The notes under the pieces: model-generated | Told to the model about the DNA's origin: nothing | Databases searched by the model: none | The model's input: the letters and a program-made list of their open reading frames with translations, nothing else | Position numbers and translations under genes: made by a program | Assembly: GCA_963692945.1 (NCBI GenBank) | Contig: OY843585.1 | Coordinates: 1,380,001 to 1,412,000, forward strand | Origin: Bdellovibrionales bacterium | Lineage (GTDB): Bacteria > Bdellovibrionota > Bdellovibrionia > Bdellovibrionales > UBA1609 | Length of the DNA: 32,000 nt | Direction of reading: 5' to 3' | Shown: piece by piece, positions 4,488 to 27,361 of the stretch | Numbering within the stretch: position 1 is the stretch's first letter | Layout of the letters: every line of letters starts with the position of its first letter

Positions 4488-4508
4488 TCAAAACAAAGTA
4501 GTTAAAGA

Positions 4509-4901: not shown

Positions 4902-4918
4902 TAAACAAAGGAGTTAAA

Positions 4919-5243: not shown

Positions 5244-5394
5244 TTATAAATAAAACCAGACCTTTATTATTTTTTTGTTGAAAAGACTTTATGTTTTATG
5301 TAAATTCTCCGAAGGTAATAATATACAAGGCTCTATCTTCCTTATTCCCAAGCTTGATAATCTGGTGAGGGTTGGCAGAGGAGCCATTTTTTTT

Positions 5395-6015: not shown

Positions 6016-6109
6016 ATTACTGGGTAATATAAAACGCAACGCAAAACACTATTTAAAAATCAAAGAAAAATAAAAAATTATTTATTGAAGTCATCTTGAC
6101 TTTAATTAA

Positions 6110-7020: not shown

Positions 7021-7021
7021 T

Positions 7022-9632: not shown

Positions 9633-9636
9633 AGTT

Positions 9637-10149
9637 CTAACTCCTTAAAATTTTTCTTGTTATACTTCTTCCTCCCGAAGAGTATGTAAGATCTTCAATA
9701 AAACTTCCTTTAAAAGATGGCTCTTGTCCAACTACTCTTGAAAATGGAAATGATTTTTGAATTGTGTTTTGTTCTTCCGGTGATAACTTATACCATTTTT
9801 GATTATATTCTAAAAAACTAGTAAAATGTGCACCAGAAACATCTGCCCATGGAGGAATTTTTCCTGGATCATCATCATCTCCACAGTCTATCATTAACTT
9901 ATCAGAAGTATATTCTAAAGTTTGTTCAATATATTGTTCATCTTTTTTAAAGCCATAAATAACAAATTTAAAAATATTGTGCATTAACAGTATAACAACT
10001 TCCTTGTAATACTGTTCAATTTCATGATCGCTTGGTGCTCCATAAAGTCTTTGGATGCGTTTTAAGTCAGTCTGTATTTTACTTGCTAAATACCCCGCAT
10101 TTGTTTTTGTAAAAACTTCAGTGTCTGATTCAGTATAACTATAACTCAT
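9637..10149 (-). CDS. cap7: CBASS HORMA-domain protein (Cap7)
   Basis: It is 170 aa and sits immediately downstream of the CD-NTase (GGAGGA RBS) and upstream of TRIP13, the canonical type III CBASS position and size. I cannot verify the fold by eye. Confidence 0.65.
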   Translation of the reverse strand: MSYSYTESDTEVFTKTNAGYLASKIQTDLKRIQRLYGAPSDHEIEQYYKEVVILLMHNIFKFVIYGFKKDEQYIEQTLEYTSDKLMIDCGDDDDPGKIPPWADVSGAHFTSFLEYNQKWYKLSPEEQNTIQKSFPFSRVVGQEPSFKGSFIEDLTYSSGGRSITRKILRS

Positions 10150-10160
10150 TATATTCCTCC

Positions 10161-11117
10161 CTATTTAAAAAAAGATGATCCAAAAATTTTTTGCCAATAA
10201 TATACCGTCTTTTGTTTTGTAGTAGCGTATAGGGCAGCGTCTATAGCATCTCCAGCTTCTAAAGATTTTTCAACAATTATACTAACCATTTCTTTAGAAT
10301 AATTTTTACTTACATTATTACTCTTATTCACAGGGTCAATAATTTGCACTGGATCATCAAAACTTTCTAAATATACTGCTTCATAGTAATCAAAAAACTC
10401 TATACGCTTTTGCAACTGACTTGTAGCAATGTAAGTGAAAAAATGTTGAAGAACCTCAGGATAATCAGAGAAATCGAAACCCTTATCTAAAAGATGAGCT
10501 AATATGATCTCTACCATAAAAGATTTGAATTTGAAATCAGGGTTTTCTCGTTTTGTTTTTTGTATCCAAAATTTTATCAAACGAACTATTTGCGAAAAAT
10601 GCTCACACTTTTCTTTTCTCTTTTGTATAAACTTAATGTGTCTTAGAATATTAGTTTTAAGGAGAGTTCCATCCTCTTGACTTATTAAATCACCGTCCCA
10701 ATTTGAATCACCATTATATAAAATAGGTACAATATCAACATCTAGACCTGTGCCACGAAATGATATTTTCAAGCTATAGTTTTGACATGTAATTTGATCA
10801 CTATTGAAATTGGGAAATTTTGAACATAAATAATTAGATAAGTCTTGTAATAAATTTTGAATATTAAATTCTTCACCTTTTATATAACAAGCCACATCTA
10901 TATCATTCAATGATCGTAAAGCTGTTCCTTTAGCTAAGCTCCCAGATAAGATCATTTTCCTTAATTTGAAATCTGGATTAGTACCAAGATATTCCTCTAA
11001 TTTCTCTCTTAAATTTCTCACTTGAGCACGATATTTATCAGATTTGTCTTTTGGTAAGTTAACTTGATTCTGAGCAAAATTAACTATCTCTTTGTGGTTT
11101 ACATATTCCCTTGACAT
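10161..11117 (-). CDS. cdnC: cGAS/DncV-like nucleotidyltransferase (CD-NTase, CdnC-like)
   Basis: The Pol-beta NTase active-site pattern is present: GSLAKGTALRSLNDIDVACY (G-S...DxD) with a third acidic motif GLDVDIVP. It is 318 aa and is the first gene of a four-gene operon. Confidence 0.8.
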   Translation of the reverse strand: MSREYVNHKEIVNFAQNQVNLPKDKSDKYRAQVRNLREKLEEYLGTNPDFKLRKMILSGSLAKGTALRSLNDIDVACYIKGEEFNIQNLLQDLSNYLCSKFPNFNSDQITCQNYSLKISFRGTGLDVDIVPILYNGDSNWDGDLISQEDGTLLKTNILRHIKFIQKRKEKCEHFSQIVRLIKFWIQKTKRENPDFKFKSFMVEIILAHLLDKGFDFSDYPEVLQHFFTYIATSQLQKRIEFFDYYEAVYLESFDDPVQIIDPVNKSNNVSKNYSKEMVSIIVEKSLEAGDAIDAALYATTKQKTVYYWQKIFGSSFFK

Positions 11118-11270
11118 AAGCTTCCTTCCTTTTAGGTATTATTCTCAATTTAATAATGCTATATTAACATAATGATAATAAAAGTCAAGCAAAAAATTTT
11201 CAATCTGTAAATTTTTTATTTCCTATCCGTAAATTTGATGATAATCTATAAATAAAATAAGGAGGAAAGG
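11118..11270. promoter_or_regulatory. Divergent cdnC / capH promoter-operator region
   Basis: This is a 153-bp intergenic region between divergent operons. Direct repeats CTGTAAATTT (11205-11214) and CCGTAAATTT (11227-11236) are 22 nt apart, just upstream of a TATAAA box (11247-11252) and the capH RBS AAGGAGGA. Confidence 0.4.
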
Positions 11271-11624
11271 ATGAAAAAACTCAATAAAGACACTATAAAA
11301 AAGAGAATTACTACAGAAAGAGAGAAAAGAGGTTGGACACAGGCTGAGCTAGCTAAAAAAGCAAGAATCACTCCTGCTGCTATATGTCAAATTGAAAAAG
11401 GAGATCGCACACCAACAATTCCCGTTCTCCATCGAATAGCTCAAGTTCTTCAAGTTTCATTAGATTATTTAGCTGGATATAAAGATTCTGTAGAACAAGA
11501 GGATGTTCAAAAGAATTCAGAGTTAAAAGTATTTTTCAGAAAATACAGAAAACTTGATCAAAAAGATAAAGAATTTATTGAAACCTACATTCATACAATA
11601 TCAAAAACAAAGGAAAAAAAATAA
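11271..11624 (+). CDS. capH: XRE-family HTH repressor (CapH-like CBASS regulator)
   Basis: The HTH is WTQAELAKKARITPAAICQIEKGDRTPTIPVLHRIAQVLQVSLDYL. It is divergent from the CBASS operon and its stop overlaps the peptidase start (TAATG). Confidence 0.75.
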   Translation: MKKLNKDTIKKRITTEREKRGWTQAELAKKARITPAAICQIEKGDRTPTIPVLHRIAQVLQVSLDYLAGYKDSVEQEDVQKNSELKVFFRKYRKLDQKDKEFIETYIHTISKTKEKK

Positions 11625-12490
11625 TGTGTCCTAAAAAGGAAGCTGGAAAAATTTTGGAAGAGATGGGAATAGATGAACTACCTATTGATCCTGTAAAAAT
11701 TATTGATTCTTTAGATATTAAAAGAATGGATCATGATTTTAATAGTATTGAAGGGTTTTCTTTTTTTGACCCTAAAAACAAGAAATTTCATATAGGTGTA
11801 AACTCTCAAATCACAAACCTGCAAAGAAAAAAATTCACCTATGCTCATGAATTAGGACATGTATGTTTAGATGGAGGCAACCTTAATAGTTGCCAACAAA
11901 GTGATATTAATTGTTTTAAAAGGTTAGATCCAAGTGAAATAAATGCTAATACATTTGCCAGCCACTTATTACTTCCTGAGTCTTTAATAAAAGATAAAAT
12001 CAAGGGCATAGAACCAAGCTGGGATGAAATTTCCAAACTGTCTAAGATAACACAAACATCTTTAATAACAGCTGCCACTCGTTTTATTGAACTTACTGAT
12101 CATATATGTTTATTAGCTGTAATTGGAGAAAATAAATGTATTAAATATTTTAAAAAATCTCAAAGTTGGTTTTTGCATTTTGATATGAATAGTCGCATTA
12201 TTGCTACTGAATCTTGTACACATAAATCTTTTTTAAGAAAGGAGTCCTCTGACTTTACAAATATTCAAGCTAACCTTTGGATAGATGATAAAAGAGTATC
12301 TCCTGATGCTCAACTTTTGGAATGGTCACTCCCTATCAATTCTTATCGAGAAGTATTAACTCTTCTTTGGGATGATGAAGGGCTTTTAGAAAGTAATGAA
12401 TATGAAAATAATCAGATATTTCATGACAACACTAATAAAATAGGAGGAGTTTGGTCTCCACCTACATTCCATAAAAGTAAAAGAAAATAA
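11624..12490 (+). CDS. capP: ImmA/IrrE-family Zn-metallopeptidase (CapP-like CBASS regulator)
   Basis: The HExxH motif is FTYAHELGHVCL, with the downstream ANTFASHLLLPE typical of the ImmA/IrrE family. It is 288 aa with a C-terminal domain of about 150 aa. Confidence 0.75.
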   Translation: MCPKKEAGKILEEMGIDELPIDPVKIIDSLDIKRMDHDFNSIEGFSFFDPKNKKFHIGVNSQITNLQRKKFTYAHELGHVCLDGGNLNSCQQSDINCFKRLDPSEINANTFASHLLLPESLIKDKIKGIEPSWDEISKLSKITQTSLITAATRFIELTDHICLLAVIGENKCIKYFKKSQSWFLHFDMNSRIIATESCTHKSFLRKESSDFTNIQANLWIDDKRVSPDAQLLEWSLPINSYREVLTLLWDDEGLLESNEYENNQIFHDNTNKIGGVWSPPTFHKSKRK

Positions 12491-13704: not shown

Positions 13705-13781
13705 TGGCGGGGTGGACGGGACTCGAACCCGCGACCTCCGGCGTGACAGGCCGGCGTTCTAACCAGCTGAACTACCACCCC
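13705..13781 (-). tRNA. tRNA-Asp (anticodon GTC)
   Basis: The reverse complement is GGGGTGG TA GTTC AGCTGGTTA GAAC G CCGGC CTGTCAC GCCGG AGGTC GCGGG TTCGAGT CCCGT CCACCCC G CCA. This is a full cloverleaf of 77 nt with an encoded CCA. Confidence 0.95.
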
Positions 13782-13980
13782 AAAGATTTAAAATCTCTAG
13801 TCTGTTTTTAGATATACTATAATAACCTATTTATTCAATAAATATTTGCTTACTATAGTAAGTGTCTCAATTTGTTCCATTAAAAAAAGCCTTGTTTATC
13901 CAAATTCCATAAAAAAAATTTGTTTTATGTATGTTATGGTCCATAATTTTATTTTGAACACATAAAAAAAGGAATTGATT

Positions 13981-14634
13981 ATGATCAATATAAAAAGAGA
14001 ATCTCGCTCTTGCTTTAGAAAAAATAAAGGGTTTTCACTAATAGAGTTACTTGTAGTTGTAGCCATTATTGGAATTTTAGTTGCTGTGGCTATACCAACA
14101 TACAGTCACTATAAAGTAGATGCCGCTCAATCTTCATTGACGGCTTCTCTACACTCTGTCGGAAAGGCATTTGCTGCTTGTCTTGCATTGAGATCCTTTA
14201 GTAATTGTAACAGCCTATCAGAATTGAAAGTGAGTTGTCCGGACTGTACTAAAGAATCCACTGGAAGAACCGCTATACCTTATTGTGTTGAAGCTAAATT
14301 ACAAGCAGGAGGAATAAACCATAAGGCATGTATGTCTTCTTCGGGAGGAATTCCTTCAATTACTGGTAACTGGGACAGTCTTTGTAAAGATGTAATAGCA
14401 GTTTATATTTGTGACAATGATGGTTTTGGATTTATTCCATTAAATCCAACTGTTTGTAGTCAGATAGGTTGTCTTAACCCATCTGCAATTAAGCCAAAAA
14501 ATAATCAACAGAAATGCAACGCAAATATTGAACGTGCATACCATAATTGTGGTGATGATAATAACCCTGAAGCTCGTTCAAGACATAGTAGTTTTGTTGG
14601 AAATTGTGATGTTAATACTGGACTGTGTAGTTAA
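13981..14634 (+). CDS. Type IV pilin paralog A (17-aa leader, Cys-rich)
   Basis: MINIKRESRSCFRKNKG|FSLIELLVVVAIIGILVAVAIPTY. ATG 13981 has AGGA 7 nt upstream and is preferred over the track's TTG 13975. The first ~130 aa are almost identical to 15022-15672, and the C-terminal ~85 aa are divergent. Confidence 0.85.
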   Translation: MINIKRESRSCFRKNKGFSLIELLVVVAIIGILVAVAIPTYSHYKVDAAQSSLTASLHSVGKAFAACLALRSFSNCNSLSELKVSCPDCTKESTGRTAIPYCVEAKLQAGGINHKACMSSSGGIPSITGNWDSLCKDVIAVYICDNDGFGFIPLNPTVCSQIGCLNPSAIKPKNNQQKCNANIERAYHNCGDDNNPEARSRHSSFVGNCDVNTGLCS

Positions 14635-14729
14635 TAACTAACTACTTCCAATTGATAGTTTAGGAATTGTTTTAAGAGCACACAAACATTTAGTTAATAA
14701 CTAACCACTTCCAATTGATAGTTTAGGAT
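14628..14729 (+). repeat. 63-bp tandem repeat (about 1.6 units) starting inside the pilin A stop region
   Basis: TAGTTAATAACTAAC(T/C)ACTTCCAATTGATAGTTTAGGA occurs at 14628 and again at 14691. Confidence 0.8.
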
Positions 14730-15021
14730 ATATTTATTAGCTAAACTTTTTATCTACTTTGGAACTTCTAAACAACTTTATAAAGATTGATTCTTGAACT
14801 TGATAAGTTTCTACCTAGAATTTTTAAAAAATAGAGATTTCAATATCAAGTGTTAAACTATTGAGCTGTAATAAAAGTGTCTCAATTTGTTTCACTGAAA
14901 AAAGTGTCTCAATTTGTTTTACTAAAAAAGCCTTAGTTTATTTGATTCTATAAAAAAATTTTTAATTTATGTATCTAATGAGTCATAATTTTATTTTAAA
15001 CAATAACAAAAGGAGTTAATG

Positions 15022-15672
15022 ATGTTTAACATAAATAAAAAGGTTCGTTCTTGCTTTAGAAAGAATAAAGGATTTTCACTAATAGAATTACTTGTAGTTG
15101 TAGCAATTATTGGAATTCTAGTTGCTGTGGCTATACCAACATACAATCACTATAAAGTGGATGCTGCTCAATCTTCATTGACAGCCTCTCTACACTCTGT
15201 CGGAAAAGCTTTTGCTGCTTGTCTTGCATTGAGATCTTTTAGTAATTGCAATAGTCTATCAGAGCTGAAAGTGAGTTGTCCTGACTGTACTAAAGAATCC
15301 ACTGGAAGAACGGCTATACCTTATTGTGTTGAAGCTAAATTACAGGCAGGAGGAATAGACCATAAGGCATGTATGTCTTCTTCAGGAGGAATTCCTTCAG
15401 TTACTGGTAACTGGAATGGTCTTTGTAAGAACATGTCAGTAACCTACGTTTGTAATGCTACAGGTAATGGATATGATCCAGCAACTACAACTTGTAGGAA
15501 TATAGGTTGTAATAATCCATCTCAAGCTATCCCATCAATACCAGGAGGTGTATGTACACCAAATGTTGGTAGTCTCAACCATAACTGTGGTGATGACAAT
15601 AATCCTGAAGCTCGTTCAACAGCTAGTAATCTTAATGGAAGTTGTGACACTACAACTGGATTATGTAGTTAA
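15022..15672 (+). CDS. Type IV pilin paralog B (17-aa leader, Cys-rich)
   Basis: MFNINKKVRSCFRKNKG|FSLIELLVVVAIIGILVAVAIPTY. The AGGAG RBS at 15011-15015 favours ATG 15022 over 15019. The C-terminal region is variable but retains HNCGDDNNPEARS and the ...TGLCS end. Confidence 0.85.
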   Translation: MFNINKKVRSCFRKNKGFSLIELLVVVAIIGILVAVAIPTYNHYKVDAAQSSLTASLHSVGKAFAACLALRSFSNCNSLSELKVSCPDCTKESTGRTAIPYCVEAKLQAGGIDHKACMSSSGGIPSVTGNWNGLCKNMSVTYVCNATGNGYDPATTTCRNIGCNNPSQAIPSIPGGVCTPNVGSLNHNCGDDNNPEARSTASNLNGSCDTTTGLCS

Positions 15673-15919: not shown

Positions 15920-17182
15920 TTAATTATGGATCTGTTTTAATTGCAGTGCCAGACATTTTAATCTGTTGTTTAAATAGATTGCCTTCTTGACCGAACTCTT
16001 GACCGAGCTCTTGACCGAGCTTTGTGTTGCCTGTTGCACGGCTCTTTTTTGTGCTCTGGAGAGATGAGATTTTGGAGGAAGTGCACTTTTTATCAAAAGA
16101 TTTATATCCTTTTTATCTAAACGTTGCCCCACAAATTTTAATAAATGAATGGCTTCATCTACGGATCGGACAGAAGGAATCTTTTTCCTTATCATTCCCA
16201 TTATTTTTTGTGTATCTTTTTTGCTAAGATGATCTCCTCCCGCTTTTACTAATCTAGCACCGTCATTCATTGTTTTAACAAGAGGGACACTTTTCTTCGC
16301 TATGATTTTCAAGTCTTCTTCATTCAAATAAGTTTTTGCAGTTGCTAACAAAAGGACGCCTTCATTCGCTGATTGAATAAGAGGAATGCTTTTTTTTGCT
16401 ATTTCTTCTTTGACGCTTTTAGGAAAAGGTAATGTTTTACTTAAAAGAATGGCGGCACGTTCGGCTGTATGTACACCTTTCACCACCTCTTCAGCCGATT
16501 TGGAAAAAGGTTTAAATGCTACACCCTCTTTGGCTTTTAATACCCACCAGCCAGAATTATTATTTTTATAAACTCCTTCAGTGAAATCAGTGTATTTCAC
16601 AGCAATATTTGGATTCAATTTAGAAATATCTTTGCGATCAATACCTTTAGCTTTTAATGCTTCAAAAACTTTTTTGTCTGTGAGATCAATATATTTTACA
16701 TCTGGAGTTACTTCCACCTCCATTACCGTTTTTCCAAAATTAGAAGAAGAGTACATATCTTCTGCTACATAGATTCCCCTTCCTACTCTTCCTTCTGCTT
16801 CAGGTTTTTTTCTTATAAAATAATTATAGACATTTGGAGTCATTGTGCCAGATCTCAAAAGACCTTCTTTACTGGATTCAGACTGCCACCTATAAAAAGT
16901 TCTTTTTTTAGAAAAAGATGTAGCTATTTTTTCTATATATTTTATTTTTTCTGCAGGAGATAAGATCTCTCCAACAACAGGAGACAAGGTCTCTCCAAAA
17001 ACAACAGGATAGTTTGTTAACAAAACAAAATGCAAAATAACCAGACTTAGTGTTTTTCTCACAGAATAACCAAACCGTAAAAAGCCATATAAGTTTTTTG
17101 GAATTAAAATAAAAAATGGTTTCACTTCTAAATCCTTCAACAAAAAATCATTTGATTTTGCAACTTTTATAAGCGGATGCAA
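15920..17182 (-). CDS. Secreted protein of unknown function, with a PARP-like GxGIYxA motif and C-terminal ~35-aa repeats
   Basis: The ORF is 420 aa. Its first 35 nt overlap the upstream gene, so the true start may be GTG 17062 (VRKTLSLVILHFVLLTNYPVVFG is signal-like). FYRW...GRGIYVAEDMYSSSNFG...VMEVEV resembles ART/PARP strands. There are three repeats of the form KKS(I/V)PL(I/V)...(A/G)..L....L.(E/K)(E/K)D, and the tail contains SSVKSSVKSSVK. Confidence 0.5.
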   Translation of the reverse strand: MHPLIKVAKSNDFLLKDLEVKPFFILIPKNLYGFLRFGYSVRKTLSLVILHFVLLTNYPVVFGETLSPVVGEILSPAEKIKYIEKIATSFSKKRTFYRWQSESSKEGLLRSGTMTPNVYNYFIRKKPEAEGRVGRGIYVAEDMYSSSNFGKTVMEVEVTPDVKYIDLTDKKVFEALKAKGIDRKDISKLNPNIAVKYTDFTEGVYKNNNSGWWVLKAKEGVAFKPFSKSAEEVVKGVHTAERAAILLSKTLPFPKSVKEEIAKKSIPLIQSANEGVLLLATAKTYLNEEDLKIIAKKSVPLVKTMNDGARLVKAGGDHLSKKDTQKIMGMIRKKIPSVRSVDEAIHLLKFVGQRLDKKDINLLIKSALPPKSHLSRAQKRAVQQATQSSVKSSVKSSVKKAIYLNNRLKCLALQLKQIHN

Positions 17183-18890
17183 TAGTTCTTTGTATTTCTT
17201 GAAATCCCACTCCTTTTACTTTCATCCCACGAACAGCATCTACTACCAATGCCACTTCCGCTGGAGAAGATTTTTCACTTATAGAAATTCCTTGTCTTGA
17301 TAAAAACTCCCGATTTTTCTTTATTCCCTGTTTAATAGATTCTCTATGTGCAAAGATGTCTTGTTCTTCTAATATAGATCGGGTTCTTCTCACCTCTTCT
17401 GGCTTGAGTGCAGTGATTTTTTGCTTCGCTTGCTTAATGACATGACCAGCCGTTCTAAGAGGTGCAGCAGTTGATCCCCAGGCTGCAAGAGGTAAAAGAG
17501 CCAATGAAAAAAACACTTCTTTGTCTTTTGCACTGAGAGTTGCAACATGTTCAAATTCTTTTCCTGTTAAAGCTCGTCCCAAACTTTCAGACCTAGCCTC
17601 TTTCGCCATATTGTAACCAACGGCACCTAAAGCCATTCCTCCACCTAAACAAATAGAAGATCCAACAGGACCAGTGAAAAAACAAGGCAGTGCCGCTAAG
17701 ACTCCTGCTCCCATAAGTGTATAATTTGTAATTTTTTTATCTTCATCAGCTATAATGCGAGCTTGTTCTGCAACGGAACAGTAACCTTTATTTTCTGCAA
17801 GAAGCTCTTCCACTAAAGGATTAAAAGAAAGAAGCAACCCTACATCCACATCCTTTGACTTGATTTTTTTCAAAGTGGACTGAAGATTTTCTTCAATTTT
17901 TAAAAAAGCCTCATTCATATCTTTGTCACTTGGATTCCCAGTTTTTAGATAGGCCATCACAGGAAGTTCACTGATTTTGTTAAAATAAGATTCACGAGCT
18001 GATTTTTGCAAACTGTAAGTCGCCTTTCTTAATTGGTATTTATCTTTTTCAGTTAATTTTTTTGACCACCCTAATTGGCGTTTTTTTGACCACATTATCT
18101 TTTGAAAATCAAAAGCCCTAATACCAGTTAAAGGTGTTTTTGCCAAAGTATCTGCATAAATTTGTTCCGCTTTGTCTTTTTCTTCTTCTGTAAGTTTAGG
18201 AAGAGAATTAAAATCAGAAACCAGATGAGAAGGTTTGGAGTCAAACCATGTTGATCTGTCTAGGAGAAACCGTTCGTCTCTTATAGCAGGAGAAGTAAGA
18301 GAAAGTTGGACACGCATATCTGACCAATTTTTTTTAACACTAGACTTTAAAAATTTAGATTGCACACATAACTCTTTCATTTTGGAATGCTCTATTCCTC
18401 TTTCTTGAAACCAAACTGTATTTTTATCAAAGCAGGCACGAACCAATTTGGTCTGAAAAACTTTACTTTCTATCTGACCAATCACGCGTTTTTTTAATTT
18501 TTTCTTAAAAGCAGAAGATTGCACAATACGATTTGCTTCACTGACCTTGCTAAAACCAAATACACCTCTAATTCCATCTTTAATAGAGCAACTCAAACAA
18601 GAACCTTTAGCCTCTGTTGCATCTTTGTCTTTTTTAATCACTTCTTCTAAAGCTGAACTTAAGTCTATGTCCTTACAACTTTCATACTTTGGCTTAATAT
18701 CTTTTGATTTTTTTAAAGGAGAAGAAGTTGAGTGAGGGGCTACCGATGAATAAACATCAGAACTGAAAGCAGGCTCTGACAAATAAGCTAAAAAAACCAG
18801 AAATACAGCCACTGAGAAAAAAGACTGGAATTCCTTAGGTTTTTTTCTACCATATTTCTTTTGTTTTTCTGGATTCTGGTAATTTATCAT
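17148..18890 (-). CDS. Membrane-anchored protein of unknown function (580 aa)
   Basis: There is an N-terminal TM/signal segment FFSVAVFLVFLAYLSEPAFS and a Gly-rich hydrophobic pair GAGVLAALPCFFTGPVGSSICLGGGMALGAVGY near residue 400. No catalytic motif was recognised. Confidence 0.5.
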   Translation of the reverse strand: MINYQNPEKQKKYGRKKPKEFQSFFSVAVFLVFLAYLSEPAFSSDVYSSVAPHSTSSPLKKSKDIKPKYESCKDIDLSSALEEVIKKDKDATEAKGSCLSCSIKDGIRGVFGFSKVSEANRIVQSSAFKKKLKKRVIGQIESKVFQTKLVRACFDKNTVWFQERGIEHSKMKELCVQSKFLKSSVKKNWSDMRVQLSLTSPAIRDERFLLDRSTWFDSKPSHLVSDFNSLPKLTEEEKDKAEQIYADTLAKTPLTGIRAFDFQKIMWSKKRQLGWSKKLTEKDKYQLRKATYSLQKSARESYFNKISELPVMAYLKTGNPSDKDMNEAFLKIEENLQSTLKKIKSKDVDVGLLLSFNPLVEELLAENKGYCSVAEQARIIADEDKKITNYTLMGAGVLAALPCFFTGPVGSSICLGGGMALGAVGYNMAKEARSESLGRALTGKEFEHVATLSAKDKEVFFSLALLPLAAWGSTAAPLRTAGHVIKQAKQKITALKPEEVRRTRSILEEQDIFAHRESIKQGIKKNREFLSRQGISISEKSSPAEVALVVDAVRGMKVKGVGFQEIQRTIASAYKSCKIK

Positions 18891-19084: not shown

Positions 19085-19882
19085 ATGGTAAGTGTATTTT
19101 TAAGAAGAGGGTCATTTACTCTTTCTTGTTTTTTCTTAATATTCAGCTCACTAGCTCAAGGCACAGGTTTAAAAAGCAGTGAGAAATGTTACCTTTCTTT
19201 TAACCAAGATATTAGAAAAAGTGTAGATGTAGATGTAAATTCAGCATTCACTCTTCAAATAAATAAATTAATAAATGGAAATTTTAAAAAAGAGAGTCTT
19301 TTCACTTTAAAACAAGGGTTGAAGAGTAAACAGATCTCTGTGCGTGAAACAGTTGTTAATCAAACTTATAAACTGATAAAATCATCTTTGAAAGAAGAAG
19401 ATTTTAAGACTGTGAATCAAGGATTTACTATTTTAAAACAGGGAATGAATGATAGTTCTGCATCCATACGCTTTATAATTACACATCAAATGGGTGATTT
19501 GATAAAACTAAATAAGATACAGGAAACGGAACTTTTTTCTTTTTTAAAACGAGGAGTAAAAGATGCAAACCAATCTGTGCGTAAAAAAACGTTTGATCAA
19601 ATTTATAAATTGATAAATTTATCTATAAAAGAAGGTATGAGAAAAGGATTCTATGTAGATCTTGTGCTTATAGATCAAGGAATTACCATTTTAAAACGAG
19701 CAATGAAAGATGAAAATCCAGATGCACGTAAAGCAGCTATCCAGCAATTGGATACAATAGCAGCGGATCTAATAAAATTAGACTTCAAAAAAGAAGTTCT
19801 CTCTATTTTAAATGAGGGCATGAAAAGTAGATATAAGACGATACGTGATCTTTCAGAAAAAACCTATAACAAGCATTTCTAA
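19085..19882 (+). CDS. Secreted HEAT-like repeat protein (short paralog without the N-terminal domain)
   Basis: The signal peptide is FTLSCFFLIFSSLAQG. It has divergent repeats of the form LKQG(L/M)K....(V/I)R......Q...LIK. The last 27 aa are near-identical to the C-terminus of the next gene. Confidence 0.6.
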   Translation: MVSVFLRRGSFTLSCFFLIFSSLAQGTGLKSSEKCYLSFNQDIRKSVDVDVNSAFTLQINKLINGNFKKESLFTLKQGLKSKQISVRETVVNQTYKLIKSSLKEEDFKTVNQGFTILKQGMNDSSASIRFIITHQMGDLIKLNKIQETELFSFLKRGVKDANQSVRKKTFDQIYKLINLSIKEGMRKGFYVDLVLIDQGITILKRAMKDENPDARKAAIQQLDTIAADLIKLDFKKEVLSILNEGMKSRYKTIRDLSEKTYNKHF

Positions 19883-19884
19883 AA

Positions 19885-22359
19885 ATGAAACGGTTACTTA
19901 CTTTTTCATGTTTCTGCTTTCTATTAAGTTCTTTGTCTTATGCTACAAGTTCTTCTGAAGATCTTAACATCTGTTATTTTTCTTTAAACAATGAAAAAGA
20001 ATTTCAAGAGATGGAGAGATTTACAGAAAAACTAAAAAAAGATTCTTCTGTTATTTCTGTAAAAGAGTATATGGAAAATGGAAAAGATCCAAAAGACTCT
20101 TTTAAAAAAATGTTAGAAAGCAAAGATCGTTGTGATGGAGTTGTTATTTCAGGTCATCACACAGGAGCTTTTGGAGGAAAAAGAGCAAACGGAAATTTAG
20201 ATATTAACTTTTTAGAAGAGATGTCTTGTAAAGAAGAATACAAACCCTTTTTCTTAAAAGTTAAATCTCTATGGCTTCAAGGTTGTAGAACTTTAGGAGT
20301 AGGAGAGTATCAAACAAGAGGTGAAGAAACTGCAGACTTCCATACAAATAGAGTAGGAGCTGTGTTAGAAGAAGATCATCTGGAACAATCTTTAGCCGAG
20401 TTGAATGTGGAGTTTTCAGAAGTTTTAGATGCTGATAATACTCTACCCTCTCGTTATTTAAGAGTGTTTCCACAAGCAACAGTATTTGGTTGGACAAGAT
20501 CTGCTCCAGGGGATATATCAGGAAGTCAGTACTCTATCCCTTTTCATATAGCTCATGTGGCTCAAACAAGAAACTCTCAACTTCCAGAAGAAAGTCCTAT
20601 TAAACAATCTTGGAAAGAGTCTTCTTCCATACTTTATAAAGAATCTTTAGAGAGTTTATTTTATCCCTCAACAAACAATCAATGTGTAGAGAGTGTAGAA
20701 AGTAAACAAGAAGAAGTTTGCACAAACATAGGTGTTGCAGCTTGGAAAAGCCATGGGAATGTTTTAGATCAAGATAAAGAATATGGATTTCTCAATCCTG
20801 ATTTACAAGCTTACTCTTCTCTTTCTCAAATGGATGAGCTAGATGGTTCTATTTTAAAAACAGCTCATAGCTACACTTGTTTGATTAGGAATAAACCAGA
20901 AGAAATATTTGAAGTTTTAGATGATATATTAGAAAAACCAGAAATCCTTCGTTACACTTACAATTCTTTATTTCATACATTGAAGAATTTAAAAAAATAT
21001 AAAAAAGATGAAGAAGAGTTTAGAAGAAACAAAGAACTTTATTTTGAACTGATTGAGACTTTAAAACAAAGTGAAAACATGAATGAGTTTCTCTATAAGA
21101 AGTTAACAGGAAAGAGAATTGGAGTTTTATCTAAGATAGATTACTTAGCTTTTTATCAAGAGCTTTATGGTAAGAAAGAAAAACTAAACTCTATTCTTAT
21201 AGATAAAGTTGTACAAATTTTTAAAAAACCTTATTCCTCTAACCGTTCTAGTCGTTCTAATGAAATAGATTATAAATTAACTCTTATTAACGCTTTAAAA
21301 GAGAATGGATATTTTAAAGATAAGAAGGGAGTTCTTGTTTTAAACCAAGGAATAAAAGATGAGGATCATCAAGTACGTTATGCTGTTATTTCTCAAACGG
21401 ATGAATTGATAAAAGCAGATATGAAAGAAGAAGCTCTTTCTATTTTAGATCAAGGCATGAAAGATGAGGATAGATATGTAGTTTTAACCACTCTTCGTAG
21501 AACAAACAAATTGATAGAAGCAGACATGAAAAAAGAAGCTCTTTCCTTTTTAAATCAAGGAATAAGAAGTAAGGATGGGACTATACGCTCAATAGTTATT
21601 CATCAAACAGATGAATTGATAAAATTAGGAATGAAAAAAGAAGCTCTTTCACTTTTAAAACAAGGAATGAAAGATGAGCATAGAGTCGTACGTGAAGCAG
21701 TTATTCATAAAACGGATAATTTGATAAAATTAGGAATGAAAAAAGAAGCTCTTTCCTTTTTAAAACAAGAAATGAAAGATGAGAATAGAGTTGTACGTGC
21801 AGCCGTTATTGATCAAATGGATGATTTGATAAAAGCAGGAATGAAAAGACAGGCTCTTTCACTTTTAAAACAAGGAATGAAAGATGAACATCATGAGGTA
21901 CGTGAAGCCGTTATTCGTAAAACAGATAATTTGATAAAATTAGGAATGAAAAAAGAATATCTTTCCTTTTTAAAACAAGAAATGAAAGATGAGAATAGAG
22001 TTGTACGTGCAGCCGTTATTAATCAAATGGATGATTTGATAAAAGCAGGAATGAAAAAAGAAGCTCTTTCTTTTTTAAATCAAGGAATCAAAGATGAGAA
22101 TAGAATTGTACGTCAGTTAGTTATTCGTCAAACGGATGAATTGATAGAAGCAGGAATGAAAAAAGAAGCTCTTTCCTTTTTAAAACAAGGAATAAAAGAT
22201 GAGAATCATAAAGTACGTAGATTCGTTATTTCTCAAACAGATGAATTGATAAAATTAGGAATGAAAAAAGAAGCTCTCTCTATTTTAAATGAGGGCATGA
22301 AAAGTAGATATAAGACGATACGTGATCTTTCAGAAGAAACCTATAACAAGTATTTCTAA
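19885..22359 (+). CDS. Secreted protein: caspase-like (clan CD-type His/Cys) N-terminal domain plus 9.7 HEAT-like 35-aa repeats
   Basis: The signal peptide is MKRLLTFSCFCFLLSSLSYATSS. DGVVISGHHTG (H91/H92) and SLWLQGCRTLG (C134) are 42-43 aa apart, each preceded by a hydrophobic strand. Repeats run from codon 486 (nt 21340). The start is 2 nt after the previous stop. Confidence 0.6.
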   Translation: MKRLLTFSCFCFLLSSLSYATSSSEDLNICYFSLNNEKEFQEMERFTEKLKKDSSVISVKEYMENGKDPKDSFKKMLESKDRCDGVVISGHHTGAFGGKRANGNLDINFLEEMSCKEEYKPFFLKVKSLWLQGCRTLGVGEYQTRGEETADFHTNRVGAVLEEDHLEQSLAELNVEFSEVLDADNTLPSRYLRVFPQATVFGWTRSAPGDISGSQYSIPFHIAHVAQTRNSQLPEESPIKQSWKESSSILYKESLESLFYPSTNNQCVESVESKQEEVCTNIGVAAWKSHGNVLDQDKEYGFLNPDLQAYSSLSQMDELDGSILKTAHSYTCLIRNKPEEIFEVLDDILEKPEILRYTYNSLFHTLKNLKKYKKDEEEFRRNKELYFELIETLKQSENMNEFLYKKLTGKRIGVLSKIDYLAFYQELYGKKEKLNSILIDKVVQIFKKPYSSNRSSRSNEIDYKLTLINALKENGYFKDKKGVLVLNQGIKDEDHQVRYAVISQTDELIKADMKEEALSILDQGMKDEDRYVVLTTLRRTNKLIEADMKKEALSFLNQGIRSKDGTIRSIVIHQTDELIKLGMKKEALSLLKQGMKDEHRVVREAVIHKTDNLIKLGMKKEALSFLKQEMKDENRVVRAAVIDQMDDLIKAGMKRQALSLLKQGMKDEHHEVREAVIRKTDNLIKLGMKKEYLSFLKQEMKDENRVVRAAVINQMDDLIKAGMKKEALSFLNQGIKDENRIVRQLVIRQTDELIEAGMKKEALSFLKQGIKDENHKVRRFVISQTDELIKLGMKKEALSILNEGMKSRYKTIRDLSEETYNKYF
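21340..22359 (+). repeat. In-frame 105-bp tandem repeat array (about 9.7 units) encoding HEAT-like repeats
   Basis: The consensus is L(N/K)QG(M/I)KDE..xVRxxVIxQ(T/M)DxLI(K/E)xGMK(K/E)EALS(F/L/I). Confidence 0.9.
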
Positions 22360-22361
22360 AA

Positions 22362-25300
22362 ATGAAAAGTTTGCTTACTTTTTCATGTTTGTGCTTTCTA
22401 TTAAGTTCTCTGTCTTATGCTACAAGTTCTTCTGAAGCAGAACAAGATTCTGAAGATATCAACATCTGTTATTTTTCTCTAAACAATGAAAAAGAATTTC
22501 AAGAGATGGAGAGATTTACAGAAAAACTAAAAAAAGATGATTCTGTTATTTCTGTAAAAGAGTATATGGAAAATGGAAACGATCCAAAAGACTCTTTTAA
22601 AAAAATGTTAGAAAGTGAAGATCGTTGTGATGGAGTGGTTATTTCAGGTCATCACACAGGAGCTTTTGGAGGAAAGAGAGCAAATGGAAATTTAGATATT
22701 AACTTTTTAGAAGAGATGTCTTGTAAAGAAGAGTACAAACCTTTTTTCCTAAAAGTTAAATCTCTATGGCTTCAAGGCTGTAGAACTTTAGGAGTAGGAG
22801 AGTATCAAACAAGAGGTGAAGAAACTGCAGACTTCCACACAAATAGAGTAGGAGCTGTGTTAGAGGAAGATCATCTGGAACAATCTTTAGCCGAATTGAA
22901 TGTGGAGTTTTCAGAAGTTCTAGATGCTGATAACACCTTACCCTCTCGTTATTTAAGAGTGTTTCCACAAGCGACAGTGTTTGGTTGGACAAGGTCTGCT
23001 CCAGGGGATGTATCAGGAAGCCAGTACTCTATTCCTTTTCATATAGCTCATGTGGCTCAAACAAGAACCTCTCAACTTCCAGAAGAAAGTCCTATTAAAC
23101 AATCTTGGAAAGAGTCTTCTTCCGTATTGTATAAAGAATCTTTAGAGAGTTTGTTTTACCCCTCAACAAACAATCAATGTGTAGAAAGTAAACAAGAAGA
23201 AGTTTGCACAAACATAGGTGTTGCAGCTTGGAAAAGTCATGGGAATGTTTTAGATCAAGATAAAGAGTATGGATTTCTCAATCCTGATTTACAAGCTTAC
23301 TCTTCTCTTTCTCAAATGGATGAAATAGATGGGTTTATTTTAAAAACAGCTCATAGCTACACTTGTTTGATTAGGAATAAACCAGAAGAAATATTTGAAG
23401 TTTTAGATGATATATTAGAGAAACCAGAAATCCTTCGTTACACTTACAATTCTTTATTTAATACATTGAAGAGTTTAAAAGAAAACAAGAAAGATAAAAA
23501 AGATGAAGAAGATGATGAAGATAAAGAAGAGTTTAGAAGAAACAAAGAACTTTATTTTGAACTGATTGAGACTTTAAAACAAAGTGAGAACATGAATGAG
23601 TTTCTCTATAAGAAGTTAACAGGAAAGAGAATTGGAGTTTTATCTAAAATAGATTACTTGGCTTTTTATCAAGAGCTTTATGGTAGGAAAGAAAAGTTAA
23701 ACTCTATTCTTATAGATAAAGTTATACAAATTCTAAAAAAACCTTATTCTGATAATCGTTCTAGTCGTTTAAATGAAAGAGATTATAAATTAACTCTTAT
23801 TAACGCTTTAGGAGAGAATGGATATTTCAAACATAAAAAAGGAGTTCTTGTTTTAAATCAAGGAATTAAAGATGAGGATTATTATGTACGTTATGCTGTT
23901 ATTTCTCACACGGATAAATTGATAAAATTAGGAATGAAAAAAGAAGCTCTTTCACTTTTAAATCAAGGAATGAAAGGTGAAGATCATGAGGTACGTGGAG
24001 CCGTTATTTATCAAACGGATGATTTGATAAAAACAGGAATGAAAGAAGAAGCTCTTTCCTTTTTAAATCAAGGAATGAAAGATGAGGATCTTAATGTACG
24101 TAAAACCGTTATTTATCAAACAGATGAATTGATAGAAGCAGGAATGAAAAAAGAAGCTCTTTCTATTTTAAATCAAGGAATAAAAGATGAGAATCATGAA
24201 GTACGTAAAGCTGTTATTTTTAAAACGGATGAATTGATAAAAGTAGGAATGAAAGAAGAATCTCTTTCACTTTTAAATCAAGGCATAAAAGATGAGGGTA
24301 TAATTGTACGTGCAGCAGTTATTTCTCAAACAGATTTTTTGATAAAACAAGGAATGAAAGATGAAGCTCTTTCTATTTTAAATCAAGGAATGAAAGATAA
24401 GTATAGATTTGTACGTGAAGCCGTTATTCATAAAACGGATGATTTGATAAAAACAGGAATGAAAGAAGAAGCTCTTTCACTTTTAAATCAAGGAATGAAA
24501 GATGAGGATTATAATGTACGTATAGCCGTTATTCATCAAACGGATGAATTGATAAAATTAGGAATGAAAAATGAAGCTCTTTCACTTTTAAATCAAGGAA
24601 TGAAAGATGAGCATAGTTATATACGTTACATCGTTATTTATCAAACAGATGAATTGATAAAATTAGGAATGAAAGAAGAATCTCTTTCCTTTTTAAAACA
24701 AGGAATGAAAGATGAGGATCTTGATGTACGTAAAGCAGTTATTGTTCAAACGGATGATTTGATAAAAGTAGGAATGAAAAAAGAAGCTCTTTCACTTTTA
24801 AATCAAGGAATGAAAGGTGAAGATCATGAGGTACGTGGAGCCGTTATTTATCAAACGGATGATTTGATAAAAACAGGAATGAAAGAAGAAGCTCTTTCCT
24901 TTTTAAATCAAGGAATGAAACATGAGGATCATAATATACGTGAAGCCGTTATTTATCAAACGCATGATTTGATAAAAGTAGGAATGAAAAAAGAATCTCT
25001 TTCACTTTTAAATCAAGGAATCAAAGATGAACATAGCGAAGTACGTACAGCCGTTATTTATCAAATGGATGAATTGATAGAAGCAGGAATGAAAGAAGAA
25101 GCTCTTTCACTTTTAAATCAAGGAATCAAAGATGAGCATAGCGAAGTACGTAAAACCGTTATTGATCAAATAGATAATTTGATAGAATTAGGAATGAAAA
25201 AAGAAACTCTTTCACTTTTAAATCAAGGAATGAAAAATGAGGATAGATATATACGTCAGTACGTTATTTATCAAACAGATGAATTGATAAAATTAGGAAT

Positions 25301-26450
25301 GATAAAAGAAGCTCTTTCACTTTTAAATCAAGGAATCAAAGATGAGGATCTTGATGTACGTGAAACCGTTATTATTCAAACGGATGATTTGATAAAAGTA
25401 GGAATGAAAAAAGAAGCTCTTTCCTTTTTAAATCAAGGAATGAAAGGTGAAGATCATGAGGTACGTGGAGCCGTTATTTATCAAACGGATGAATTGATAA
25501 AAACAGGAATGAAAGAAGAAGCTCTTTCCTTTTTAAATCAAGGAATCAAAGATGAGCATCTTAATGTACGCACAGCAGTTATTCATCAAATGGATGTATT
25601 GATAAAATTAGGAATGAAAGAAGAAGCTCTTTCCTTTTTAAATCAAGGAATGAAAGATGAGGATCTTAATGTACGTGAAACCGTTATTATTCAAACATAT
25701 AATTTGATAAAATTAGGAATGAAAAAAGAAGCTCTTTCCTTTTTAAATCAAGGAATGAAAGGTGAAGATCATGAGGTACGTGAAACCGTTATTCATCAAA
25801 CGTATAATTTGATAGAATTAGGAATGAAAGAAGAAGCTCTTTCACTTTTAAATCAAGGAATCAAAGATAAGAATAGCGAAGTACGTGGATCTGTTATTTA
25901 TCAAACAGATGAATTGATAAAATTAGGAATGAAAAAAGAAGCTCTTTCACTTTTAAAACAAGGTATGAAAGATGAGTATAAATTTGTACGTGAATTCGTT
26001 ATTGATCAAACGGATGATTTGATAGAAGTAGGAATGAAAAAAGAAGCTCTTTCACTTTTAAATCAAGGAATGAAAGATGAACATAGCGACGTACGTACAG
26101 CCGTTATTTATCAAACGGATGAATTGATAAAAATAGGAGTGAAAAAAGAAGCTCTTTCCTTTTTAAATCAAGGAATCAAAGATGAGAATCATAGAGTACG
26201 TTTGCAAGTTATTTATCAAACAGATGAATTGATAAAAGTAGGAATGAAAAAAGAAGCTCTTTCCTTTTTAAAGCAAGGAATGAAAGATAAGGATAGCGAA
26301 GTACGTGGATCTGTTATTTATCAAACAGATGAATTGATAAAATTAGGAATGAAAAAAGAAGAAGTTCTTTCACTCTTAAAACAAGGAATGAAAGATCAAA
26401 ATAGCAAAGTACGTAATCTTTCAGAAGAAATCTACAAAGAGTATTTCTAA
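22362..26450 (+). CDS. Secreted protein: caspase-like N-terminal domain plus 24.7 HEAT-like 35-aa repeats (1362 aa)
   Basis: The N-terminal ~495 aa are near-identical to the 19885 gene (H97/H98, C140), with an extra acidic/basic insert KENKKDKKDEEDDEDKEE. Repeats run from codon 498 (nt 23853). Confidence 0.6.
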   Translation: MKSLLTFSCLCFLLSSLSYATSSSEAEQDSEDINICYFSLNNEKEFQEMERFTEKLKKDDSVISVKEYMENGNDPKDSFKKMLESEDRCDGVVISGHHTGAFGGKRANGNLDINFLEEMSCKEEYKPFFLKVKSLWLQGCRTLGVGEYQTRGEETADFHTNRVGAVLEEDHLEQSLAELNVEFSEVLDADNTLPSRYLRVFPQATVFGWTRSAPGDVSGSQYSIPFHIAHVAQTRTSQLPEESPIKQSWKESSSVLYKESLESLFYPSTNNQCVESKQEEVCTNIGVAAWKSHGNVLDQDKEYGFLNPDLQAYSSLSQMDEIDGFILKTAHSYTCLIRNKPEEIFEVLDDILEKPEILRYTYNSLFNTLKSLKENKKDKKDEEDDEDKEEFRRNKELYFELIETLKQSENMNEFLYKKLTGKRIGVLSKIDYLAFYQELYGRKEKLNSILIDKVIQILKKPYSDNRSSRLNERDYKLTLINALGENGYFKHKKGVLVLNQGIKDEDYYVRYAVISHTDKLIKLGMKKEALSLLNQGMKGEDHEVRGAVIYQTDDLIKTGMKEEALSFLNQGMKDEDLNVRKTVIYQTDELIEAGMKKEALSILNQGIKDENHEVRKAVIFKTDELIKVGMKEESLSLLNQGIKDEGIIVRAAVISQTDFLIKQGMKDEALSILNQGMKDKYRFVREAVIHKTDDLIKTGMKEEALSLLNQGMKDEDYNVRIAVIHQTDELIKLGMKNEALSLLNQGMKDEHSYIRYIVIYQTDELIKLGMKEESLSFLKQGMKDEDLDVRKAVIVQTDDLIKVGMKKEALSLLNQGMKGEDHEVRGAVIYQTDDLIKTGMKEEALSFLNQGMKHEDHNIREAVIYQTHDLIKVGMKKESLSLLNQGIKDEHSEVRTAVIYQMDELIEAGMKEEALSLLNQGIKDEHSEVRKTVIDQIDNLIELGMKKETLSLLNQGMKNEDRYIRQYVIYQTDELIKLGMIKEALSLLNQGIKDEDLDVRETVIIQTDDLIKVGMKKEALSFLNQGMKGEDHEVRGAVIYQTDELIKTGMKEEALSFLNQGIKDEHLNVRTAVIHQMDVLIKLGMKEEALSFLNQGMKDEDLNVRETVIIQTYNLIKLGMKKEALSFLNQGMKGEDHEVRETVIHQTYNLIELGMKEEALSLLNQGIKDKNSEVRGSVIYQTDELIKLGMKKEALSLLKQGMKDEYKFVREFVIDQTDDLIEVGMKKEALSLLNQGMKDEHSDVRTAVIYQTDELIKIGVKKEALSFLNQGIKDENHRVRLQVIYQTDELIKVGMKKEALSFLKQGMKDKDSEVRGSVIYQTDELIKLGMKKEEVLSLLKQGMKDQNSKVRNLSEEIYKEYF
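23853..26450 (+). repeat. In-frame 105-bp tandem repeat array (about 24.7 units) with internal segmental duplications
   Basis: Over 140 nt at 23941-24080 are identical to 24781-24920, an offset of 840 = 8 x 105. A third, closely similar copy lies near 25411, an offset of 1470 = 14 x 105. Confidence 0.9.
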
Positions 26451-26452
26451 AA

Positions 26453-26597
26453 ATGAAAAGTTTGCTTACTTTTTCATGTTTGTGCTTTCTATTAAGTTCT
26501 CTGTCTTATGCTACAAATTCTTCTGAAGCAGAACAAGATTCTGAAGATCTCAACATCTGTTAATTTTTCTCTAAACAATGAAAAAGAATTTCAAGAG
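26453..26597 (+). pseudogene. 5' stub of a fourth caspase-like/HEAT paralog (signal peptide region only)
   Basis: It is near-identical to 22362-22506. A 1-nt insertion turns TGTTATTTT into TGTTAATTT, giving TAA after 36 codons. Homology ends at ...TTTCAAGAG (26597). Confidence 0.8.
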
Positions 26598-26741
26598 TAT
26601 GCACCTAAGCCCAATAAATTACTCAAAAATACTATAGAAACTTATCAAAGACAAAAACAACATAGTTAGAAATAAAAAACCTTGAAAAAAATAAATAAGT
26701 TGGCCTATAGTAACAATGATAAATAACAATAAGGAGTCCAA

Positions 26742-27026
26742 ATGAAAACACTGATTTTATGTCTAACTCTATTTTCTTTTCAAGGTATAGGAAATACTAT
26801 AACAACAGGACAAAAAACATATGAGATAAAACCAAAGGCTGATCTTTCAGGGGCTGATCTTTCAGAGGCTAATCTTAAAAGGGCTGATCTTTCAGGGGCT
26901 GATCTTTCAGGGACTACTCTTATTTTAGGGAAGAAACTTTTTTCAGGGGCTACATTTAATGTGGAAACAAAATTTCCATTCTCTAAAAAGTACGCAATAA
27001 AAAAAGGAATGATTTTTGTTCCCTAA
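26742..27026 (+). CDS. Secreted pentapeptide-repeat protein (94 aa)
   Basis: An AAGGAG RBS and the signal MKTLILCLTLFSFQGIG are present. The repeats are ADLSGADLSEANLKRADLSGADLSG. Confidence 0.7.
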   Translation: MKTLILCLTLFSFQGIGNTITTGQKTYEIKPKADLSGADLSEANLKRADLSGADLSGTTLILGKKLFSGATFNVETKFPFSKKYAIKKGMIFVP

Positions 27027-27064: not shown

Positions 27065-27099
27065 AAAAAACTCTCTATTATTTAGAGAGTTTTTTTTTA
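27065..27099 (+). terminator. Rho-independent (bidirectional-looking) terminator
   Basis: AAAAAACTCTCTA-TTATT-TAGAGAGTTTTTTTTT lies about 40 nt after the pentapeptide gene stop. Confidence 0.7.
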
Positions 27100-27284: not shown

Positions 27285-27361
27285 TGGTGACTGCGGCAGG
27301 ATTCGAACCTGCGACCTAGAATTTAGGAAACTCTTGCTCTATCCAACTGAGCTACGCAGCC
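27285..27361 (-). tRNA. tRNA-Arg (anticodon CCT)
   Basis: The reverse complement is GGCTGCG TA GCTC AGTTGGATA GAGC A AGAGT TTCCTAA ATTCT AGGTC GCAGG TTCGAAT CCTGC CGCAGTC A CCA. It is 77 nt with a full cloverleaf. Confidence 0.9.

Follow-up and report, generated by a model that had tools for sequence, protein, structure and literature searches.

What do the tandem open reading frames (ORFs) of a Bdellovibrionales bacterium encode that begin like secreted proteins and run into long repeat arrays? Bdellovibrionota are best known for preying on other bacteria, and the hydrolases that they export attract interest as sources of enzymes and as living-antibiotic tools. The cluster in question lies on the + strand, at 19085-26563, of a 32,000-nucleotide (nt) stretch of contig OY843585.1 (positions 1,380,001 to 1,412,000), hereafter the window, which is AT-rich with a G+C content of ~30%. 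An earlier reading, made from the letters alone, had proposed secreted proteins that fuse a caspase-like His/Cys domain to long HEAT-like arrays. On the strength of structural models and conservation, we consider it an even bet that the products of the two large genes are cysteine hydrolases exported through Sec, most likely endopeptidases, in which an H91/C134 dyad would sit on a caspase-type scaffold and a repeat arm would bind targets. They probably represent a new family of exported Cys/His peptidases, of the clan-CD type, whose repeat arms can be exchanged (HEAT in this cluster, WD40 in other members). The wider claim falls a little short of even in our estimate, namely that this is the founding locus of an undescribed exported clan-CD-like peptidase family (at the level of a new MEROPS family), essentially confined to Bdellovibrionota and forming an extracytoplasmic counterpart of Raptor and separase that possibly processes prey or envelope proteins.

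The features on which the argument depends are listed here, with residue numbers, in amino acids (aa), that refer to paralog 1 throughout; HMM stands for hidden Markov model and TRF for Tandem Repeats Finder.

19085-19882, + strand: 265-aa ORF, an exported HEAT-only protein (ORF list; Pfam HEAT E 3e-9; family HMM without N-domain match)
19885-22359, + strand: paralog 1, 824 aa, with signal peptide, Cys/His domain, helical domain and 9 HEAT units
19885-19947, + strand: predicted Sec signal peptide of paralog 1, MKRLLTFSCFCFLLSSLSYA followed by TSS (sequence, rule-based check)
19954-20829, + strand: alpha/beta Cys/His domain of paralog 1, aa 24-315 (AlphaFold; family HMM match to aa 25-314)
20155-20157, + strand: codon of H91, candidate general base, in the motif SGHH directly after b3 (paralog 1, conservation)
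20284-20286, + strand: codon of C134, candidate nucleophile, in the motif QGCRT directly after b4 (paralog 1, conservation)
20830-21330, + strand: conserved all-helical domain of paralog 1, ~aa 316-480, containing C332 (AlphaFold helices 318-473)
21338-22289, + strand: HEAT array of paralog 1, 9.1 copies of a 105-bp (35-aa) unit (TRF; Pfam HEAT_2)
22362-26450, + strand: paralog 2, 1362 aa, with the architecture of paralog 1; H97 at 22650-22652 and C140 at 22779-22781
23851-26396, + strand: HEAT array of paralog 2, 24.2 copies of the 105-bp unit, consensus LNQGMKDEDHDVREAVIYQTDELIKLGMKKEALS (TRF, consensus translated)
26453-26563, + strand: stub ORF, 36 codons (ORF list)
26453-26600, + strand: remnant of a third copy, comprising the junction, the signal peptide and the first ~48 codons (junction alignment)

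Both DGVVISGHHTG and SLWLQGCRTLG are present in the N-terminal region, with H91 43 residues and H92 42 residues ahead of C134. The sequence-only reading had described a shared N-terminal region of ~480 aa with caspase-like His/Cys spacing, and both parts hold over the 482 codons compared. It had also made its case depend in advance on conservation of the pair, which is what we found: counted over 245 aligned family rows, H91 is kept in 229/232, H92 in 222/232, G133 in 237/239 and C134 in 238/239. The most distant locus, at 25% identity, retains CDGLVISGHHTG and WLDGCNT, and the eight columns that are invariant among the 17 most divergent N-domains comprise S-G-H, C115, C134, P208 and two Phe. 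C134 is lost in a single member, P0284 (C to N), from which H91 has also gone (H to K). Two distant Cys/His paralogs without C30 and C83 flank a canonical member in Bdellovibrionales RIFOXYA1_FULL_36_14 (locus L013, MEPW01000043, at 3118-5460 and 8644-10998); matched at E 1e-13, they read ISGHF...FLACNN, so that H91 and C134 are kept and H92 is not.

The family has six conserved cysteines, and their losses are informative. C30 and C83 disappear together and never singly (in P0292, P0326 and the two flanking paralogs of L013). The equivalent of C332, at the start of the helical domain, is found in 192/197 members, and all four of the full-length members that lack C115 are among the five that lack it. 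The equivalent of C279, near W287, is absent from 53/220 members, every one of which has C134, and the occurrence of C134 is not tied to that of any other cysteine. Taken together, these losses point to two structural disulfides, from the pairs C30/C83 and C115/C332, and to a free, functionally coupled His/Cys pair. This pattern, read from the alignment, is the strongest evidence here for a catalytic dyad.

In the mechanism that we propose, catalysis would be carried out by His91 and Cys134 at the C-terminal ends of the neighboring strands b3 and b4, within an alpha/beta sandwich of caspase-hemoglobinase layout. The disulfides C30-C83 and C115-C332 would stabilize the exported domain and staple it to the conserved helical domain, and the variable repeat module (a 35-aa HEAT solenoid of 9 or 24 units, or WD40 blades in the distant paralogs) would bind or position the target. 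Two other uses of these residues were considered and rejected. One was that H91/H92, D151-x-H153 and D182-x-D184 form a metal site, arginase-like or other; it is ruled out by the variation of D151, H153, D184, E176 and H221 in divergent members and by the placement of D151, H153, D182 and D184 on or beside helices in the insert that separates b4 from b5, away from the ends of strands. The other was that C134 belongs to a C(X)5R phosphatase motif, which would require an Arg at +6 that is lacking.

The predicted fold is consistent with this arrangement. AlphaFold models of residues 1-482 (predicted local distance difference test score (pLDDT) 89.8, predicted template-modeling score 0.88) and of residues 24-315 (pLDDT 88.0) agree on the order of elements, b1-a1-b2-a2-b3-[His]-small beta elements-a3-b4-[Cys]-insert-b5-a4-a5-b6. 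Strands b1 (27-33), b2 (57-61) and b3 (85-89, then GHH) are followed by short beta elements, helices 107-114 (a3) and 120-125, and b4 (128-132, then GC); the loop 136-150 behind the Cys is of low confidence, and a 63-residue three-helix insert leads to b5 (199-203, then T-x-S-A-P-G), after which come two long helices, a beta hairpin and the all-helical domain 318-473. The caspase sheet of clan CD has the order 2-1-3-4-5-6, with five parallel strands, one antiparallel strand and five flanking helices; its His lies on loop L3 after b3 and its Cys on L4 after b4, and a small three-stranded sheet sits between b3 and a3 (PMC4357240). Compared with this description, the modeled order of elements matches the caspase-hemoglobinase fold. 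As in clan CD, the His comes first, with H91 after strand 85-89 and C134 after strand 128-132 in the models, and both residues of the candidate dyad are conserved across homologs.

The family was also set beside caspase-3, using a sequence verified as 100% identical to database entries and matching the motifs by eye.

b1: family CYFSLNNEKEF, caspase-3 CIIINNKNF
b3: family VVISGHH, caspase-3 VLLSHG
b4: family LWLQGCRT, caspase-3 FIIQACRG
b5: family FGWTRSAPG, caspase-3 YAYSTAPG

To the eye, these four collinear motifs resemble those of caspase-3 at corresponding structural positions. In a Foldseek search of the whole model against the PDB, caspase-8 (0.69), CED-3 (0.54) and procaspase-3 (0.51) were among the matches of highest probability, all with template-modeling (TM) scores of <=0.41.

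A considerable body of results nevertheless weighs against the caspase-type assignment. The best E value of the whole-model Foldseek search against the PDB was 0.05, with none at E<=0.001. With the domain alone, the same search gave a best E of 5e-3 and a best TM score of 0.37, with no caspase in the top 50 and a list led by periplasmic-binding-protein type I, CheY-like, flavodoxin and WrbA folds. Profile comparison by hhalign used a caspase-3 ortholog profile of low diversity (effective number of sequences 2.2), which represents C14A only, in global, local and sub-region modes; at full length it returned P values of 0.14-0.48 with the best alignment in a non-homologous register, and on two halves it aligned three of the four motifs (b1, Cys and SAPG) as expected, reaching only P 0.08 and 0.06. 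Mean-field direct-coupling analysis of 225 sequences (effective number 183) gave one strong contact, 28-58 between b1 and b2, and weak, register-consistent signals for b1-b3, b3-b4, b4-b5 and b5-b(278-281); because the controls b1-b4 and b2-b5, pairs that are not adjacent, reached similar scores, this analysis does not fix the strand order. No Pfam match at E<=10, clan CD families and CHAT included, was obtained for 33 core and 17 divergent N-domains. The usual clan CD motif is His-Gly, whereas the family here has Gly-His-His. The caspase-like domain of the sequence-only reading thus stands in its predicted element order and in its His and Cys after consecutive strands, and lacks significant Foldseek or hhalign support; with no significant fold or profile match, membership of clan CD is unproven.

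The N-terminal region belongs to no annotated family. It had no Pfam, NCBIfam or PDB sequence match, whether searched as single sequences, in member scans at E<=10 or as core and divergent profiles. The earlier failure to recognize a described family is borne out, and no described family covers the domain, which has no name, Pfam model or solved relative. The family is large: when 1.84 billion cluster representatives (clusters at 50% identity) were searched exhaustively with HMMER, 761 clusters passed E<=1e-3 and 202 passed E<=1e-30, the best 150 matches, which were those listed, all having E<=7e-42. A word-indexed search returned 179 relatives, all labeled hypothetical, the few named ones coming from metagenome-assembled genomes (MAGs) of Oligoflexia, Bdellovibrionales or Halobacteriovoraceae; repeated with an alignment of the 17 most divergent N-domains, it gave 23 core members only and no annotated distant relative.

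The taxonomic survey for which the sequence-only reading had called, made on one genome per GTDB species, found 32 loci, and 30 of them come from Bdellovibrionota MAGs or from MAGs with uninformative labels. The labels include Bdellovibrionales, Bacteriovoracaceae, Bacteriovoracia, Oligoflexia, Pseudobdellovibrionaceae, a MAG assigned to Bacteriovorax stolpii (L007) and 'Proteobacteria bacterium' (L025). The remaining two, L021 (JARFQU010000181) and L022 (JAIBDN010000043), were found on contigs of 16 and 19 kb whose bins are labeled Halioglobus sp. and Gammaproteobacteria; they are either mis-binned Bdellovibrionota contigs or cases of rare horizontal transfer. Several genomes carry two to three copies (for example, L023 and L024).

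An export signal is predicted for nearly all of the family. A rule-based check found a signal-like hydrophobic segment directly before the domain in 198/208 full-length members, and the other ten look like mis-called starts. In the cluster itself, the 265-, 824- and 1362-aa ORFs and the stub all have a basic-then-hydrophobic, signal-like N-terminus, in line with the signal peptides claimed for them, and in paralog 1 the sequence MKRLLTFSCFCFLLSSLSYA, followed by T, has the basic n-region, hydrophobic h-region and small residues at -3 and -1 of a Sec signal under the same kind of check. What follows the ~480-aa region varies: the low-G+C clade that includes the window has HEAT arrays, the L013 paralogs have about seven WD40 blades, and other members have long regions without a Pfam match. 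The repeats of the WD40 type that stand in place of HEAT in the L013 paralogs show the repeat arm to be swappable.

The layout of the cluster records its recent history. The ORF sizes, the 2 nt between each ORF and the next and the common junction TTTCTAAAAATGAAA given by the sequence-only reading agree exactly with the ORF list and our junction alignment, in which all three junctions read ...TATTTCTAAAAATGAAA.... The 'four tandem paralogs', on the other hand, are four frames in tandem that are not of one kind. In the 265-aa ORF, a signal-like N-terminus peculiar to it precedes degenerate HEAT repeats (Pfam HEAT, PF02985, 36.7 bits); this ORF lacks the His/Cys domain and has in common with the 824-aa gene only the repeats, the last ~100 nt (nearly identical 3' ends) and the junction. 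The cluster therefore comprises a pair of full paralogs, a gene with HEAT repeats only and a remnant. Homology of the stub to the other copies extends over ~150 nt and reaches ...GAATTTCAAGAG near 26600, a 1-nt insertion creating the stop after codon 36.

Across their first 482 codons, the 824- and 1362-aa ORFs are 95% identical in DNA, with 42 synonymous and 24 non-synonymous codon differences and three in-frame indels. The excess of synonymous over non-synonymous differences argues that both full copies are under purifying selection, and by this count both are functional. The HEAT-like arrays that had been described are confirmed by HEAT_2 (Pfam PF13646) scores of 82.8 bits (E 2e-23) for the 824-aa protein and 195.9 bits (E 1e-58) for the 1362-aa protein, against a gathering cut-off of 27.7, and by the TRF counts of 9.1 and 24.2 copies, whose units match each other at 78-83%. 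The locus is a recent tandem duplication in which the arrays expanded or contracted and a third copy decayed to a stub, the stub itself being either that decayed copy or a duplication boundary. Of the birth-and-death pattern that had been proposed, the recent duplication and the change in repeat number are confirmed; the HEAT-only gene is no His/Cys paralog.

The three HEAT-bearing ORFs also have similar C-terminal tails with a terminal Phe (...TYNKHF at 19862-19882, ...TYNKYF at 22339-22359 and ...IYKEYF at 26430-26450). A tail of the form ...Y-x-x-[YH]-F was considered as a family-wide sorting signal and ruled out, as the wider family does not conserve it; the tail therefore reflects local duplication. 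In a sister genome (L033, 11619-12136 of a 1.33-Mb contig, ENA ERZ25072854), the single family member, of 534 aa, is followed by ORFs of 66 and 50 aa, the first of which matches HEAT. These fragments suggest a HEAT array broken by frameshifts, so that array decay would recur in the clade.

Several explanations compete with an exported clan-CD-type peptidase. We regard as unlikely, though it is the strongest of them, that the proteins are Cys/His enzymes of another type, in which a new or unrelated alpha/beta fold has converged on the caspase layout of the dyad and which may have transpeptidase or ligase activity, or act as amidases or esterases on envelope substrates other than protein, for example peptidoglycan stems or lipids. 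The best Foldseek matches to generic flavodoxin-like or Rossmann-like sandwiches (TM<=0.37), together with the lack of caspase profile similarity, speak for this explanation, as do the Gly-His-His in place of His-Gly and the highly conserved 63-residue helical insert between b4 and b5 (ADFHTxRVG, EFSATLDQDNPLSSRYLR), which has no caspase counterpart. It accounts less well for the element order, the His-before-Cys arrangement, the ~43-residue spacing and the four collinear motifs, all of which fit the caspase-hemoglobinase layout, or for the caspases among the top-probability whole-model matches. Other cysteine-hydrolase folds with His before Cys, such as those of sortases, L,D-transpeptidases and clan CE, are not known to be parallel alpha/beta sandwiches of such an order.

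Less probable again is an N-domain that does not catalyze at all but serves in recognition or as a scaffold, as in Raptor, its His and Cys binding a ligand or metal and the proteins acting in exported binding or adhesion through their HEAT or WD40 arms. Raptor shares this architecture and conserves H153 and C196, but it was inactive on Ac-DEVD-AMC, the sole substrate tested, and its authors propose substrate recruitment (PMC5205667). Conservation of His and Cys alone is therefore no proof of catalysis, a caution that bears on our preferred reading as well. Long repeat arrays are typical of binding proteins, and further polar residues (H92, D151, H153, D182, D184 and H221) are conserved in the core clade. 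Set against this, no other polar residue is conserved nearly as strictly as H91 and C134, with H153, D184, E176 and H221 varying in divergent members; C134 appears to stay free while other cysteines pair, and an invariant free Cys would be costly in an oxidizing compartment unless functional; and the joint loss of H91 and C134 in P0284 looks like a pseudo-enzyme arising from an active family. Decaying repetitive DNA, or an assembly artefact of a repeat region, without selected function is very improbable. The truncated stub, the highly repetitive 105-bp arrays and the HEAT fragments behind the sister-genome copy would fit it, but frames of 824 and 1362 codons are intact, synonymous differences between the copies outnumber non-synonymous ones, a protein identical to paralog 1 (P0001) is on record from a 1.56-Mb contig, and the 761 related clusters have conserved motifs.

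The cluster has no conserved gene partners, the single sister-genome copy lies in an unrelated neighborhood, and in the window the cluster stands downstream of a defence island, between two ORFs without a family match and a small pentapeptide-repeat gene. Directly upstream, at 15920-18890 on the - strand, are overlapping ORFs of 420 and 580 aa without a Pfam match, the 580-aa product having a hydrophobic N-terminal segment and glycine-rich hydrophobic stretches. Directly after the stub, at 26742-27026, a 94-aa protein has a signal-like N-terminus and pentapeptide repeats (Pfam E 1.6e-10). It is followed by the only terminator-like hairpin downstream of the cluster:

27065-27095, + strand: terminator-like hairpin (consensus scan)

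Since this hairpin is the only one in the region and comes after the pentapeptide-repeat gene, co-transcription of this gene with the cluster is possible, and the hairpin may, on weak grounds, end a single transcription unit of 19085-27026 that includes it. A promoter scan was uninformative, finding fewer sites than in shuffled sequence.

The region holding the cluster is bounded by tRNA-Asp (13705-13781) and tRNA-Arg(CCT) (27285-27361), and these positions place a variable region between tRNA genes. The defence island includes a complete operon resembling a type III cyclic-oligonucleotide-based antiphage signaling system (CBASS) at 7972-12490 on the - strand (PADLOC E 1e-65 to 1e-127), with NucC endonuclease (7972-8703), TRIP13 (8700-9632), HORMA (9637-10149) and a CD-NTase/oligonucleotide cyclase (10161-11117), and with the divergently transcribed regulators CapH (11271-11624) and CapP (11624-12490). 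A second putative defence module at 5275-7741 has an NYN-domain protein (5275-6015), a SLATT/DUF4231 two-transmembrane effector (6110-6556) that overlaps a ThsB-like TIR protein (6553-7020), and a SEC-C-motif protein (7022-7741). Four small proteins with a type IV pilin N-terminal methylation motif lie two on each side of the island, at 1982-3506 and 13975-15672.

What emerges is a large family of exported proteins, multi-copy and nearly confined to one phylum, whose Cys/His center resembles that of caspases. If its members are peptidases, they constitute a new clan CD family or a convergent fold; Raptor and separase are known to join a caspase-like core to a HEAT or WD40 arm, a pairing that would then also exist in exported bacterial proteins, and the family would offer a concrete candidate for targeted proteolysis in predation or envelope remodeling. 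Taxonomy makes a role in interaction with prey or host plausible, and only the phyletic restriction and export point to predation in particular. Because one member is found in the Bacteriovorax stolpii-assigned MAG and this species has been cultured, genetics and biochemistry may be feasible.

Several known systems share parts of this architecture. The arrays match HEAT_2 strongly and the NblB and CpcF models weakly, and precomputed matches to PF03130 exist in homologs, which relates them to the phycobilisome (PBS)-lyase-type HEAT proteins (HEAT_2 PF13646, HEAT_PBS PF03130; NblB, CpcE/F); scores against the NCBIfam NblB and CpcF models are far under the family cut-offs. The known proteins of this type are cytoplasmic lyases or adaptors with few repeats, whereas the proteins of this cluster are exported and join 9-24 near-identical 35-aa units to a Cys/His domain. 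Separase joins a clan CD catalytic domain to a large helical (ARM/HEAT/TPR-like) region that recognizes substrates or regulators (PMC4626109, PMC4852461). It is eukaryotic and intracellular, has its helical region N-terminal to the protease, which is the opposite order, and shares no detected sequence similarity with the family.

Peptidases of clan CD bring the His and Cys side chains next to each other and cut peptide bonds with strict P1 specificity. Clan CD as a whole, with caspases (C14), legumain (C13), clostripain (C11), gingipains (C25), separase (C50) and the MARTX/TcdA cysteine protease domains (C80), differs in that no sequence, profile or significant Foldseek similarity could be detected, and in that the family here has its 63-residue conserved helical insert after the Cys, its putative disulfides and its HEAT or WD40 arrays behind a Sec signal. 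The likeness lies in the predicted alpha/beta sandwich, whose strand b3 is followed by the His and strand b4 by the Cys, the His-Cys gap of ~43 residues, the small beta elements between b3 and a3, the hydrophobic blocks before both motifs and the QxC. Gingipains, clostripain and legumain are also exported or extracytoplasmic. C13 peptidases have a helical domain after the core. The same is true of C11 and resembles the arrangement in the family here (PMC4357240).

By analogy of architecture, Raptor, a subunit of mTORC1, is the closest counterpart. It is eukaryotic and cytosolic, whereas the proteins described here are bacterial, exported and multi-copy, with one repeat type each, and no sequence relationship between them was found. 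Raptor begins with a caspase-like domain in which H153 and C196 are 43 residues apart and continues with HEAT/ARM and then WD40 repeats (PMC5205667). The family repeats both the domain order and the 43-residue gap, with HEAT arrays in the window and WD40 repeats in the L013 paralogs.

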